Part shown: piece after piece, positions 22,368 through 54,809 of the stretch | Position numbering within the stretch: the stretch's first letter is position 1 | Layout of the letters: each line of letters starts with the position of its first letter | Assembly: GCA_024137785.1 (NCBI GenBank) | Contig: JAHRHZ010000054.1 | Span: 3,718,493-3,782,492 of the forward strand | DNA from: Ginglymostoma cirratum | Lineage: Eukaryota | Direction of reading: 5' to 3' | Length of the DNA: 64,000 bases | The notes under the pieces: model-generated | Database searches by the model: none | The model's input: only the letters and a program-made list of their open reading frames with translations | Told to the model about the DNA's origin: nothing | Position numbers and translations under genes: made by a program

Positions 22368-24119
22368 CTACAGAGCAAAAAATAAATGAGAATGAATGAG
22401 GAAAAAACCCTTTCTCTTTCTAACTGAAAGAATGTTCCCTTCACAGTTAAATAATTACAATATTACATTCTTTTCCCCACAGAAGCTCAATGATTTACAG
22501 TGCTAGGTGCTAAAAGATGAATAAAAGGTAAGCAAATTAGGAAGTAGTAATTCAGTAACACTAAAGTTACTTTTGAAAACACAGATTGTGGGAGGAAGAA
22601 ACACAACATGTGAAGATTCACAGTTTTGAGATTCAGGAAACATATGTAAGGGCAGGAGGTAATTTTAAGGAGCGAAAACAGAAAACATTTGAAACTTTTA
22701 CTCCTTTTTAAAGGGGAAAGCAAAAGTGACTAACTAATCTCCTCTGGTAGTATTGGTTCAGAGGAGATTATTAGCTGAAATACCTCTTGTTCAAGTTAAA
22801 ATAGAGGTTTCAGAACCTTTGATAGGAATTCAAAGTCTTGATTTACAATTGCATGCAAAGGTGGGACCTTATCGTGCAGCACTCCTTCAATACTACACTA
22901 AAATGGCAACCTAGCAGAAGAATTCAATGCCTCCAATTTTGGATCTAGGCACGAGAATGTTACTACTCAAGCCATCACCCCATGTAATTTGCTGATCTAC
23001 ACTGTCTCCCATTCTGTCAAATCTTAATTTTAAAATTCTTGTCTTGGTCTTCCGATCTCACCACGGCAGCACTGTACTATGGCATCAATGCTAATAGATC
23101 AGGGGAAAGATACAGATGGGAATCCTGGAAGTTTGGATTTCACCCCCCGTTCCAGGTAGAAGTGTGACAGCACTTTCTAAAAGCAATATATTGTTTCACA
23201 GGGTGAGATGATGAACTGATGTCATTCTCAAATGACAGCAAGCAGATGCCTGTGTAATGGTGCTGAAGGCTATAAAATGAAGTAGTCTGCCCAAGAGAAT
23301 ACAATGAGTTTGTTTTGTTTTCTCCCAGCTGCCTCCCTCACTTTCCAGCTTCCTCTGCAACACCGGAGTTTCTCTCGGCCTTCGTGTCTGCACTTGGTAA
23401 CCTTACTGTAATAATTATTCCAAATATATAAACTGCCTAATCAGTTACTGGAAGTAAGATGATTGCTGCCCTTGGACACTCCTTCATTAGCCACAAAGTG
23501 GGCAGTTTGGAAAAAAGCTGAGGTCAAGGTTCAAGATTCTAGCAGCAGACCCCACCCATGCCCATCCAATACTGAGTGTTAAAATTCATTCATCAGCCCT
23601 CAGAACTCTGAACCCTACCACTAGCCTCAAACATCTCAATTTTCATTTCTCAGTGTTACAAACTGTCCCTTCAATTGCCTGAGTCCTAGGTTCTGAAATT
23701 TCCTCTCCAAATTTCTCTGCGACCATGTCCTTCAAAGTCAGATGTGATCATTTTTTTTCTTATACCTGATGTGGTTCAGTGGCAAAATGTATTTGGTAAC
23801 ATTCCCTGGATGTACTTTGGGATATTCTACTGTTATGACTGGTGGCCAGTTTTTAAACTGTCCAAGGCCTGAACAGGGGAATTCCCTCCCTATATCTATC
23901 TACTTCTCCCTTTCCACACTTCAGATACTCTTTAAAACCTACTTCTTTCACCAAGCTTTTAGACATCTGATCAAACATATATGGATCAATAATATATTTT
24001 GTTTCATGTTCCTGCAATACAACTTGGGATTTAAATGCAATTTGGAATTGTGGTTCTAAATAAATGAGTTGTTAAAGGCAATAGTTTATAAACTAAGTTT
24101 CAAAAACATGAACAAGTAC

Positions 24120-24233
24120 CTTTTGCGATGAACTGCTCGGTATTTTGCTGGAAAACGTAGTGATAACTCCATGCCTCAGCAGAACAAGCTCCACATGATT
24201 AAGAATGGCTTCATAACAGAACTTCAGGTGGAG
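24120..24233 (-). CDS. PTPN23: PTPN23 exon (~e24), LHLKFCYEAILNHVELVLLRHGVITTFSSKIPSSSSQK
   Basis: ttttag|CTC...AAG|gtactt; 114 bp. Confidence 0.93.
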
Positions 24234-26136
24234 CTAAAATGATAAACCGCAAAGCAGATCAGAAAAGCAGCAGCTGCCATGCATGTCTTTTATGTTTATA
24301 TGTTGACTTCCCTCCCACAAACCACAAAAACAATTGCTGGGAACTGAAAAGTATACTTTAGCAGACTGCATTGGTAAATTATTTAAGTACACAAGATTGC
24401 AATACAGCATAATATTTTTGGTGATGGCTCAATCAGTTTCAGAAGAAGGCTGAGCTAAATGTTGCACTCCAGTCAAGCGGACGTAGAAAGTTAATGTAAA
24501 CTGGTTTTAGTGGGTCATTCAAACCACTTGTGTGTCAACACACCAAATGGCTATAAACAATTTGACCAGTGTTGGGACTGTGGCCAAAGCCAATCCTGCC
24601 TTTGCCCATTGAGCACCCATGCAAGCATTCTAAAAGAAGGATGTACCAAGGGAGTAGAAGATTAGGAGGAAATAGAAAGGACACAAACACCCAGTCCACA
24701 ATGGAATCCTCTACTAGACAGTGACTTTAATAAATAGTGCAAAACACGAGAAATAAACTTAAATTTTAGATTTGTATCGCAGAACACAAAAGTAAAGTCT
24801 TCTAATCAGCTGACAATTTGGATTATTTTCAAAATGATTTTCTTGAATATAAGAAGTTAATGATATCACTTGCAGGATATGATGTGCATGTGGCACTATT
24901 TTAAGCAAATTAACTACACCTACACACTTTACTAATTATATAGAAGGCTGCTAAAGGACAATAAACAAAAGTGAAGCATTGTTTCAAGTTGGGGGTCACT
25001 TGCTCAAACATATGTCAGAGCGAAAAAAATTATTTAAGCCTTAAACTGATTTTTAGGAGATTGATTTTGTAGCAACATCAATGACAATGTTATTTAGATA
25101 TTGCAAGGCAGGTGGAAAGGTTATTAAATTAGAAAGGATCGTCACAATCAAAAGCTTTTGAAGCATCCAGAAATTTGTAGTTTGGGCTACACCCAATTGA
25201 AAAATTCTTAACATTGTCTTTAGCTGAATTGACCACATGCACGTGGTCTCGACCCTGGTAATTACACTTTGGGAATTCACTCAAAATCAAGGATGAACAA
25301 ACATCACTGAAATGACAGAAGTTGGAAAAAGCCAGAGCTCTGCCAAAGCTCACCATGTTTGCAGAATCTTCCTTTCTATATCATTTTCTCAAATGCAATT
25401 AGGAACGGGCAACAAATGCTGCCAGTCTTGCCTGCAATACCCATATCACTAAAATAAAAACATTCTACCTTGCCTGATGGCACAATACTGTCATGGACAG
25501 GCAAATATGTACCAATAGTTGGAGCATTCATGCCAAATATACAGTTCTTTTCTATAGACGAGGTAGAGATCAGCTAGTTTATATGGTGGGATCCAGAGTC
25601 TTGGATGCTGGTGATCACCAAATTTCACACCCAACAAATGACATCTCCAATACATGCAAGTTCTAAACAAGGATTACGGTTTTGTCTAGTTGATTGTAAA
25701 ATCAAAATATGCGGGTGTTTTCAACCAGATCATCAACCTCAATTCCTTGGAATGAAAGTTTCTGTTTTGATGAAGATGCTTTCTTTTGGCTTTAACAACA
25801 TCATTAGAATAGTCCATGATGAATTCATGTTTTTAAGTAAATCTTGTGCTATACAAGCCAGCAGTCTGAATTCTGTAACAATCACAGAAGAGTTCCACAA
25901 GGTTACATTTGGCTGTTCTAACATATCAGTTAAATTCAATTTCACTAAAGATCTTGTTGCAAGATTTTCAATAGGTCACATGAAAAGCAGTAATGCATTA
26001 CAGTTAAAACGTTGTGGAGCTGGATGAACACAGCAGGCCGAGCAGCATCAGAGGAGCAGGAAAGCTGATGTTTCGGGTCGAGACCCTTCTTCAGAACCTT
26101 TGATAGGAATTCAAAGTCTTGATTTACAATTGCATG

Positions 26137-26536
26137 NNNNNNNNNNNNNNNNNNNNNNNNNNNNNNNNNNNNNNNNNNNNNNNNNNNNNNNNNNNNNNNN
26201 NNNNNNNNNNNNNNNNNNNNNNNNNNNNNNNNNNNNNNNNNNNNNNNNNNNNNNNNNNNNNNNNNNNNNNNNNNNNNNNNNNNNNNNNNNNNNNNNNNNN
26301 NNNNNNNNNNNNNNNNNNNNNNNNNNNNNNNNNNNNNNNNNNNNNNNNNNNNNNNNNNNNNNNNNNNNNNNNNNNNNNNNNNNNNNNNNNNNNNNNNNNN
26401 NNNNNNNNNNNNNNNNNNNNNNNNNNNNNNNNNNNNNNNNNNNNNNNNNNNNNNNNNNNNNNNNNNNNNNNNNNNNNNNNNNNNNNNNNNNNNNNNNNNN
26501 NNNNNNNNNNNNNNNNNNNNNNNNNNNNNNNNNNNN
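26137..26536. other. Assembly gap (400 N)
   Basis: Run of N; flanks 26050-26136 and 26537-26623 are identical. Confidence 0.99.
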
Positions 26537-26649
26537 AGAGGAGCAGGAAAGCTGATGTTTCGGGTCGAGACCCTTCTTCAGAACCTTTGATAGGAATTCA
26601 AAGTCTTGATTTACAATTGCATGCAAAGGTGGGACCTTATCGTGCAGCA

Positions 26650-26680
26650 CTGAAGAAGGGTCTCGACCCGAAACGTCAGC
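26650..26680 (+). ncRNA. Minimal hammerhead ribozyme core
   Basis: CTGAAGA-A-GGGT(ctcg)ACCC-GAAAC-GTC with the canonical GUC cleavage triplet; the stem I 5' strand is replaced by captured sequence. Confidence 0.55.
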
Positions 26681-28220
26681 TTTCCTGCTCCTCTGATGCT
26701 GCTCGGCCTGCTGTGTTCATCCAGCTCCACAATGTTTTATCTCAGATTCTCCAGCATCAGCAGTTCCTATTATCTATGCATTACAGTTAGTTGGGGAAGA
26801 TGAAAGATTGAGAAAGAAACAAACTCCATGCAAGTAAAAAACTTTTTAGCTGGATTTCTGGAATGGAAACCAAATTACATGGGGGTTTTGCGTAATTGGG
26901 AACAGAATTAGAAGTCAGAAGCAGTTGGATGGCTCTGTGCAGTCAGAAAGAACTCTGGACAAAGTTCAGAGTTAGTAAACAGCTAATTGATAGAATTAAG
27001 CCTCAAAAAATGTCTTGGGAGCTGTGGTAGCTCATAGGAAGCTATGCGCAATTAATAGTTCAGGCGGCAGAATGAGGTGCGAAGGAAATCCACAAGCAAT
27101 ATTTGCTTTGTGCAACTGAGCAAGATCAGATCTCAGGAAAAAGCCAGTGGCATTATTAGATTGGCGAATCTAGCTGTCTATAAAAAAGAAACGCTCAAGA
27201 TGAGCCCGACAGTAAGTGTTGCAATTCAGTGTTCAGAATCCAGGGAGTACAGACTCAGAAAAAGATCAGTAATTGTGACAATCCATGACAGAGCTGGATC
27301 AAAAGTGAAAAATCGTAATCCCGTAAGAAATTTTAATTTATTGTAACTTCCTACAGAAGAGAAATGGAAAAAAGAAAAAGATGAGAAGAGAAGGTATGCA
27401 GATTTCACTAAAATCTGAAGGGAGTAGAGGGGCAGGTTACAGAGAAATTCACGGGAACAGGTTTGACCACATTTGCTGTTTGATGTGTTCTGTGAATGTT
27501 CAACGATTGTTTGTCTATTACCATTTACACATCATACTAAGATCAGACATTAGAATACAAATTATAATTAGCTTTGAACAGTCTACACTTCTTTGTAATT
27601 AATTTTTACGTTTGATTAAGTTTTACTTATAATAACTTGTTATTCTTTGCTGATTAAATAGGCCTGACTAACCTGTTTCATACTAAATACTTACCATCTG
27701 AAACCCTATAAATGGCCATATCATAGCTTGGTTAAATTAAAAGAACTGACAAGATCTGTGGAGCAGTGGGACTACAAAGGGATCAGTGCATCTCTCTAGA
27801 CTTGGTTATAACTGCCTATAGACAGATCAGAAGGTAGTTTTTCAATACATGCAATATTAATCTATATAACTCAGAAGATCCCAGATACAATTTCTGCTAT
27901 TTGCCAAGTTAACTTGATGATGATAATGGTAAAGATCACAAAAGAACTTCTGGGATCTGAATCAGAAAACTGCTGCAACTCAGCGAGCATCAAATCCTTC
28001 AGAAGAGGAATGGCAAAAAGGAAAGTTATGCAGGTGAAACTCAGAAATAAAGAAAAACTTAGACTTGGGTGTTTCACTCCGTCAATATGTAGCACCTTTT
28101 AAAAACACTGCATGTTCAACAGAATACTTTGATATTGTATTGTTTGAAGCAACAGGATGAAAGAACAACGATCAACTGAAGGAAACTCAAGTCAAAGGAA
28201 TATGTTGTTCACTTCCTCAC

Positions 28221-35259: not shown

Positions 35260-36480
35260 ATTTCTCCTCATTCCTTTCTTAAAAAGGAATCCTCATTTTT
35301 AATCTACATCCCCTACAAGGAGGAAGATGTCCTGGTACCCATTTTATCAAGTCCCTTCAGGATCTTAATGCATCAATAAAATCACTTTCACTCATCTAAC
35401 ATCTGTAAACCTTTTTCTCAGATAAAGCTAAATACATCGTACACAGTGCTCTAAGGACTCCAGATGCGGTCTTAAGATCCTGTAAAGCTTCAGTAAATTT
35501 TTTTTTCCCTCCCTGAAGAAGGGTCCCGACCTGAAACGTCAACTTTCCTGCTCCTCTGATGCTGCCTGGCCTGCTGTGCTCCTCCAGCTCCGCACTGTTA
35601 TCTCTGACTCCAGCATCTGCTGTTCTTACTATCTTCCAGTAAAACATTCCTACTTTCATAATCCATTCTTTTGCAATAAACACCAACATTCCATCTGCCT
35701 TCCTAATCACTTACTGTACCTACTTTTGCAATCATGCAACTGGACACTCAGATACCTCTGTACCACTGGCAATGCAATTTCTCTCCAATCAAACAGTATC
35801 CTGCTTTTCTATTCTTCTTCACAAGTGAATAACTTCAAATTTTTCCACATTATACTCATCTGCCAATATCTGCCCACTCCGTTACCCTAGCTATATTCCT
35901 TTGTGGACCCTTCATCTCTTTTTGGCAACTTATCTTCTTACATAAACTTCCTTACATATGGTTCCCTTATTTAAATCATTGATATTAACTGTAAATAGTC
36001 AAGGCCCCATCATTCTGACCGATATCCAACCGATATCGCTTGCCAACCTGAAAAAAACCAATGTATCTCTATCCTCTGCTTCCTGTAGGCTAACAATTCC
36101 CTTATCCATGCTAATATGTTAGCTCTTACACCAAGTGCTCTAATCTTTCACAGAGACTCCACCTTTGACACCTTATCAAATGCCTTGTTAAAATTAAAGT
36201 ACATCACATCCATTGGTTCCCATTTACCTACTTTGCTTGCTATTTATTTCAAATAACTCTAATAAGTTACTTAAACATGATTCTGCTTTCACAAAACCAT
36301 GTTGGACTCTGCCTGATAGAATGATTTTCTAAGCATCTTACTATAAAAATATAGAAAATAGAAGATGGCCATTCAGCCCTTCAAGCCAGTTCCAACATTC
36401 AGTATGACCATGGCTGATCACCCAACTCAGTACCATTTTCCACTTCACCTCATACCCTTTGATCCCTTTAGCCTGAAGAA
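35260..36480 (-). mobile_element. Degenerate CR1-like LINE fragments (interrupted at 35513)
   Basis: ORF 35396..35710 begins IRKADGMLVFIAK; RT remnants caccttatcaaatgcctt. Confidence 0.7.
35513..35633 (+). mobile_element. Penelope-like short element (same subfamily as 26650) nested in a CR1 fragment
   Basis: CTGAAGAAGGGTCCCGACCTGAAACGTCaactttcctgctcctctgatgctgcctggcc..., collinear with 26650-26775. Confidence 0.8.
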
Positions 36481-54562: not shown

Positions 54563-54809
54563 ACAACAAAAACATAAATTGCTGGAAAAACTCAGCAGGT
54601 CGGGCAACATCTGTGGAGAGAAATCAGTGTTAACATTTCAAATTGAGTCACTCTTCATCAAAACAGAGATCTGTGTTCCGAGGAAGGGTGACTCGACCCG
54701 AAACGTTAACTGATTTCTCCCCACGGATGCTGCCAGACCTGCTGGGCTTTTCCAGCAATTTCTATTTTTGTTTCTGATTTGCAATATCCACAGTTCTTTT
54801 GGTTTTATT
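54563..54809 (+). mobile_element. Penelope-like fold-back element with long inverted arms and 11-bp TSD
   Basis: TSD tagccatacaa at 54552-54562 and 54810-54820; arm ~54565-54665 inverted to ~54675-54773; hammerhead-like CCGAGGAAGGGTGACTCGACCCGAAACGTTAAC. Confidence 0.85.

Follow-up and report, generated by a model that had tools for sequence, protein, structure and literature searches.

In a 64,000-nucleotide (nt) stretch of Ginglymostoma cirratum DNA (contig JAHRHZ010000054.1 of assembly GCA_024137785.1; this whole stretch is hereafter the window), we found that a short fold-back element, which we file as a probable derivative of a Penelope-like element, carries in the loop between its two inverted arms an exact copy of intron sequence from its own neighbourhood. 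The copy (26577-26651, plus strand) and the donor (22809-22883, plus strand) are identical on the same strand over exactly 75 nt and the match allows no extension, as an earlier note on this DNA, made from the letters alone, had reported. Across the genome, 42 of 71 selected fold-back loops have a donor within their own ±10 kb, and this recurrence, together with the single-locus match in the window, supports the local templated capture which that note had put forward. We consider it probable (about 0.6) that the loop was copied from a resected, single-stranded flank of the insertion site during the joining of the two new ends.

According to the exon borders, the donor, a unique host sequence, lies within a minus-strand protein-tyrosine-phosphatase gene, in its last intron (22368-24118) as had been claimed, and the element lies in the preceding intron (24235-28208); the gene is recognized by its splice sites and Pfam matches, and is presumably PTPN23. 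Within the host gene, the insert amounts to a duplication of intron sequence. Read from the left, the element consists of a 14-base-pair (bp) target-site duplication (TSD; ATGCATTACAGTTA, 25993-26006, plus strand), a short inverted arm of 88 nt (26007-26094, minus strand), the captured loop, a long arm (26650-26741, plus strand), a one-sided tail of about 34 nt (26742-26775, plus strand), and the right TSD, again 14 bp of ATGCATTACAGTTA (26776-26789, plus strand); the copy does sit, as first described, between head-to-head arms of a TSD-flanked element. A 400-N assembly gap (26137-26536) interrupts the loop and would hold no real sequence, its flanking contig ends overlapping by 87 nt (26050-26136 equals 26537-26623). 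Because of this overlap, we infer a single element of about 282 nt and a true donor-to-loop distance of about 3.28 kb, not 3.77 kb. The left contig holds the first 47 nt of the captured loop (26090-26136, plus strand), including the left microhomology, and the left junction occurs on both gap-flanking contigs, which agrees with the earlier description. The 75-nt copy comprises a 68-nt loop plus the junction overlaps, with a left microhomology of 5 nt (7 nt if the arm reached the AGAAA present in most listed copies) and a right one of 2 nt, a length frequent by chance. Loop and donor differ at 0 of 68 positions, and the two arms at 2 of 87, both CpG transitions. A genome search with the 75-mer returned three matches, all inside the window (the donor, the right contig, and the 47 nt at 26090-26136), and because of this the 75-mer is placed outside the element consensus. 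The possibility that it is a multicopy part of that consensus is thereby ruled out, and the genome holds no daughter copy of it anywhere.

The direction of copying from host to element, proposed in the earlier note, is borne out by a related organism. Two DNA runs of that organism each yield a single contig for 26578-26651, of 5,754 nt in one and 353 nt in the other, with 2 differences, and both contigs carrying this 74-mer stop short of the arms, in a non-arm context; since the 74-mer occurs there without arms, the donor is taken to be ancestral. The Deu-SINE-like remnant from which the note had argued the same direction amounts to a single 30-nt match (E 0.001; 1.52 Mb searched), which is unverified and was not used for direction. 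Zero divergence had also been read as a recent event, which holds only in a relative sense: the finding of 0 differences in 70 nt has a p of about 0.2 at the arm divergence of the element, and the presence of both outer element ends at the site in contigs of two other same-species runs, that is, in two other individuals, weakens the claim further.

Exact-motif searches of the genome found the motifs head to head in 4,065 matches at a spacing of 0-44 nt and in 901 at a spacing of 45-200 nt; the earlier statement that other copies have only a short spacer is thus true of most copies and fails for these 901. For comparison of fold-back loops with nearby DNA, a check that the note itself had suggested, 70 elements were taken with ±10 kb of sequence (10 of 22 matches, 11 of 50 listed of the 901, 19 of 49, and 30 of 50 listed of 66). 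Their loops were selected by eye as non-element (5 of the first 10 being loops of 27-32 nt), and the window element brought the set to 71. A match in the loop's own region of at least 38 bits, better than every foreign-region match, was counted as a local donor. The 42 loops with such a donor compare with 239 of 4,970 loop-by-foreign-region pairs at 38 bits, and these foreign matches come nearly all from a few repeat-derived loops. A local donor exists for 31 of the 52 loops without a foreign match and, among elements whose arms measure 45 nt or more and are at most 10% diverged and whose loops measure 44 nt or more, for 32 of 38. Three loops with an own-region match were scored by hand as having no donor (L033, an element tandem; L041, element-internal; L049, 36 nt at 86%), and the 42 include L055 and L131, whose best match is a neighbouring fold-back with the same loop. 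Loop-donor identities range from 83 to 100%. Because 40 of the 42 are diverged from their donor (below 100%) and 41 are free of any gap within 200 nt, the class is not an assembly product; 25 events are both gap-free and diverged, with a TSD score of at least 11. In a listing made without the pattern filter, 6 of the 50 listed matches held captures, which would extrapolate to roughly 100 of the 901, or about 2% of all exact-motif fold-backs.

The donors lie 46-5,025 nt from the insertion with a median of 616 nt, 38 of the 42 being within 2 kb, and that of the window element is the fourth farthest. The combinations of side (left, right) and orientation (direct, inverted) hold 14, 10, 9, and 9 donors, donor position is unlinked to the tail-bearing arm (17:16), and the captured copies measure 34-257 nt including the arm overlap. 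Junctions were counted in the 36 events without neighbouring-repeat homology (72 junctions): filler was present at 49, while 7 were blunt, 6 had an overlap of 1-2 nt, and 10 an overlap of at least 3 nt. Both junctions are filler-free in 6 of the 36 events, the window element among these; microhomology at both junctions, as the earlier note saw at this locus, is the exception across the class. The cleaner junction is that of the donor end far from the insertion in 31 events against 11 (n = 42, p = 0.003) and in 27 of 36 once six special rows are dropped, and a rule-free measure of this polarity over all events gave 29:13 (p = 0.02). In all 4 events with an older solitary terminal repeat next to the donor, it is the distal end that has the homology. 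The observed pattern is the one that copying from a resected flank predicts: donors that become fewer with distance and lie to either side in either orientation, with filler at their near end and homology at their far one. Timing at or near integration, also part of the original suggestion, is supported by a pooled loop-donor divergence of 208/3,728 (5.6%) beside an arm-arm divergence of 236/3,344 (7.1%), the two being correlated (Spearman 0.40, p = 0.012, n = 39).

In the mechanism that we propose, the element enzyme would cut both strands 14 bp apart and extend each 3' end by reverse transcription of the front part of its RNA, leaving two same-sense cDNA tails unable to pair; cleavage and extension of both target strands have been shown in vitro for a purified Penelope-like protein (PMC11167929). 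About 80% of such breaks would close via short self-templated spacers, and among the matches listed the short spacers in most fold-backs look built from arm-end sequence. In roughly 2% the break would persist, and its 5' ends would be resected over hundreds to thousands of bases; kilobase-scale resection is typical of germline breaks. One tail, in most cases once a few filler bases had been added, would then prime on the 3' strand thus laid bare, 35-200 nt would be copied away from the break, and the copy would be joined to the other tail at a terminal homology, which is TTCAGAA at this locus and an older terminal repeat in four events. At this locus, the right arm would have copied the plus strand leftwards and been joined at TTCAGAA, with a template antisense to the pre-mRNA. 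The polymerase may be the host Pol theta or the element's own reverse transcriptase (RT). One composite loop (L103/L104, C17:25143033) joins 110 nt of left flank (inverted, 162 nt off) to 30 nt of right flank (direct, 700 nt off), and each of the two pieces derives from a 3'-ended strand.

Several observations weigh against copying from a resected flank. No local donor was found for 29 of the 71 loops, 7 of which still have none at ±20 kb, and the choice of loops by eye was made among the matches listed. The polarity without the homology cases is 23:9 (p = 0.02, Wilcoxon 0.12), and the rule-free measure in the stricter subset is 24:12 (p = 0.065). The priming junction is not readable from sequence, and the same polarity would be expected from a nascent RNA that stops at the break. 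Inserts made by Pol theta are generally below 25 bp (PMC12426944), shorter than the captured loops. Loops are slightly less diverged than arms, also without CpG (4.6% vs 5.3%), which leaves room for some later events. Such a later event would be the insertion of a near-perfect palindrome that subsequently broke at its tip, was patched from local DNA, and was thereby stabilised. The lower loop divergence fits this account, at the present locus too (0/68 vs 2/87); resection-based copying in such a repair predicts the same distance and polarity pattern, and three neighbouring fold-back pairs (L055, L131, L137/L180) share a loop, as inter-copy homology repair would yield. Palindromes are known to undergo centre-break rearrangement. 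However, both arms are usually intact to the same point at the ribozyme 5' edge with the tip unlost, loop and arm divergences are similar in size and correlated, and at least 4,065 short-spacer palindromes persist unrepaired; we regard repair after insertion as unlikely. The earlier note had left the template as nearby DNA or the pre-mRNA, and of these the nearby DNA is favoured. In a capture from RNA, the element RT would leave its own RNA for a nascent transcript of the neighbourhood (the phosphatase pre-mRNA in this case) and then switch back. Donor and element do lie within one transcription unit, priming from the left 7-nt homology here would use the minus strand, the strand of the pre-mRNA, and switching of the L1 RT between RNAs is documented (PMC11702581). 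Nevertheless, neither the steep distance decay nor a junction polarity tied to the side of the break is expected of a complete pre-mRNA, a spliced loop was seen in 0 of 42 events, and a final join at the homology junction would imply a template antisense to the pre-mRNA; together these points make an RNA template rather improbable.

The locus itself calls for a further caution, as its loop may have been pasted in by an assembly or library chimera during contig extension at the hairpin. It adjoins an assembly gap, is the sole donor event among the 42 with a gap within 200 nt, and is one of just two at 100% identity. Gap-adjacent chimeric loops do occur in this assembly, in which gap sizes of 10, 100, 400, and 5000 N presumably reflect linked reads: six other gap-adjacent fold-backs (C82:21686003, C23:18769039, C3:6479405, C14:65367865, C263:36119764, and C53:261456) carry loops identical or nearly identical to those of fold-backs elsewhere, likely through mis-extension of the assembly through the arms. 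No independent record spans the loop among the contigs of the two other same-species runs and the raw RNA reads; the contigs have no cover over the loop centre (26592-26646), though one covers both flanks, which is uninformative since contigs drop hairpins and rare words, and the RNA reads at the locus (two sets) are too thin and swamped by other copies. On the other side, junction overlaps of 5-7 nt and 2 nt cannot arise from k-mer path confusion, the left junction stands on both contigs, both TSD copies are intact, and the same structure recurs in the 25 gap-free, diverged, TSD-flanked events. Because this loop has its only match in the surrounding DNA, whereas the known chimeras import the loop of another fold-back, we judge the risk of an artefact to be slight.

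Loops shared between fold-backs were considered as proof of re-transposition and mostly rejected, one member adjoining a gap; the gap-adjacent cases could easily be mistaken for fold-backs that propagate as units. Two gap-free fold-backs 1.1 Mb apart (L159, G000:C25:23291270, and L160, C25:24404385) have a 55-56 nt loop and the right junction in common at 95% likeness, with differing TSDs and a local donor for L160 only; no donor was found for L159 out to ±13 kb. Re-transposition or ectopic conversion of a captured loop is possible for this pair. The whole loop including filler is common to neighbouring fold-backs at L055 (C8:13359339; 4.1 kb apart, the original host donor lying 0.2 kb from the second copy), L131 (C63:23337020; 0.25 kb apart), and L137/L180 (C81:11385463 and 11372365; 13 kb apart). 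When three donorless loops were searched genome-wide, L137 matched its neighbouring fold-back 13 kb off, L057 matched only low-copy repeats at 87%, and L143 proved to be a repeat with its best other match (83%) at 48 kb. The loop of a TSD-flanked element at L169:2999-3046 (C4:6798336) contains roughly four CCCTAA repeats of the telomere type, for which ±3 kb of surrounding DNA offers no source and which are possibly a patch made by telomerase or from telomerase RNA, and that at L170:3013-3064 (C9:41637599) consists of slipped TCAT/TCATCAT repeats resembling iterative synthesis from the arm end.

The assignment of the element to endonuclease-bearing (EN+) Penelope-like elements follows from its anatomy. 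Members of this class have an inverted, 5'-truncated pseudo-long terminal repeat (pLTR) and a one-sided tail of 30-40 bp (PMC3846280, PMC8557442, PMC11167929), and the window element shows an inverted truncated copy (the 88-nt arm), a one-sided tail, and a 14-bp TSD. Both arms are pLTRs with minimal type I hammerhead boxes, as described for Penelope-like terminal repeats (PMC4209133). By the criteria used (boxes CUGANGA and GAAA-N-N-UH, stem II, and a palindromic stem III), the right arm has both boxes (CTGAAGA..GAAAC-GTC) and a 4-bp stem II at 26650-26682, and the left arm has a CG-to-CA change in the stem III palindrome. An Rfam search of the window gave no hammerhead match at the gathering score, and folding gave stem II only, a stable stem I not being seen (z about 0.5); the ribozyme appears to be present as a motif only, with no part in the capture shown. 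For sequence beyond the tail in longer copies, 40 of 2,789 genome candidates were scored and 11 loci examined, at which the same repeat, 85-92% like the arm, flanks remnants of open reading frames (ORFs). L200 has a pLTR-3.1 kb-pLTR structure with an RVT_1 (RT) match (E 0.0038), and L198 and L191 have GIY-YIG matches (E 0.038 and 0.014), all below the Pfam cut-offs; RT and GIY-YIG matches occur in 3 of 9 and 2 of 9 scanned frames of decayed ORFs. An ORF with RT and GIY-YIG domains is thus linked to the terminal repeat, as in EN+ Penelope-like elements, via weak sub-cut-off matches. The element resembles this class in its head-to-head terminal repeats, one-sided tail, TSD, pLTR hammerhead motif, and pLTR-ORF-pLTR longer copies.

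Captures of related kinds have been reported. Unrelated sequences captured between solo pLTRs, and host-derived spacers, are mentioned for Penelope-like elements (PMC3846280); unlike in the accessible text of that and similar papers, where the source is not traced to the insertion neighbourhood, the captures here lie at the inversion junction with a donor within a few kb in 42 cases. In L1 templated insertions (10.1101/2024.08.27.596794; PMC11702581), as here, short non-element DNA is copied in at integration and a genomic segment is duplicated. These are somatic (22 instances in 3,598 insertions); their templates are below 250 bp and typically lie no more than 15 bp from the site (10.1101/2024.08.27.596794, whose supplementary figure on distances may bear on this contrast), whereas the present captures are germline events in the middle of a double-primed fold-back, with donors at a median distance of 616 nt and as far as 5 kb away. 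For L1, twin priming and homologies at the junctions are known (PMC2912911, PMC11702581), zebrafish LINEs have 5' extra nucleotides derived from flanking DNA (PMC4245944), a likeness in that short flank DNA is copied into the insertion, and yeast fold-back inserts measure 5-34 bp (PMC11724301). Patchwork spacers, filler, minimal priming homology, and break-flanking templates are shared with Pol theta end joining (PMC12426944), and the local donors found for 42 of 71 loops are consistent with inserts copied from break-flanking DNA with junction filler or microhomology. The captures are not, however, the short inserts templated beside the break that Pol theta generally makes; they span about 34-200 nt and come from hundreds to thousands of bases off. 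In the literature covered, which largely excludes subscription papers, we found no report of kb-range local capture or of its polarity at Penelope inversion junctions. The element class and the kind of scar are known; reach and regularity differ from the published cases.

Elsewhere in the window, positions 54565-54806 hold a fold-back of an older, longer hammerhead-bearing subfamily, and positions 35513-35634 a lone arm from the family of the captured-loop element. The element-bearing intron region (24206-27300) has a depth of 8-25 in contigs of two runs, against 0-4 for the last intron; intron retention is possible on the basis of these contigs.

The origin of the inverted repeats of Penelope-like elements is an open question on which these captures bear: PMC8557442 calls for work on how they form, and PMC3846280 proposed self-priming. 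The local captures at the fold-back centre argue that this centre was an open junction at the target site, because DNA of the target neighbourhood would not be expected inside a hairpin formed by self-priming before integration. Tentatively, and with rather less confidence than in the copying itself, it may be that a long-lived break with two tails and kb resection is a regular stage of Penelope-like insertion, recorded in at least about 100 fold-backs, that the donor distances are in consequence a ruler of germline resection, that the polarity settles double priming over self-priming, and that a telomerase-like RT possibly copies the flank. The capture set gives countable predictions (distance, strand, and age) for any long-read genome with these elements. 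If the end-joining reading is true, the captures would be a fossil record of the last step of insertion in these elements.

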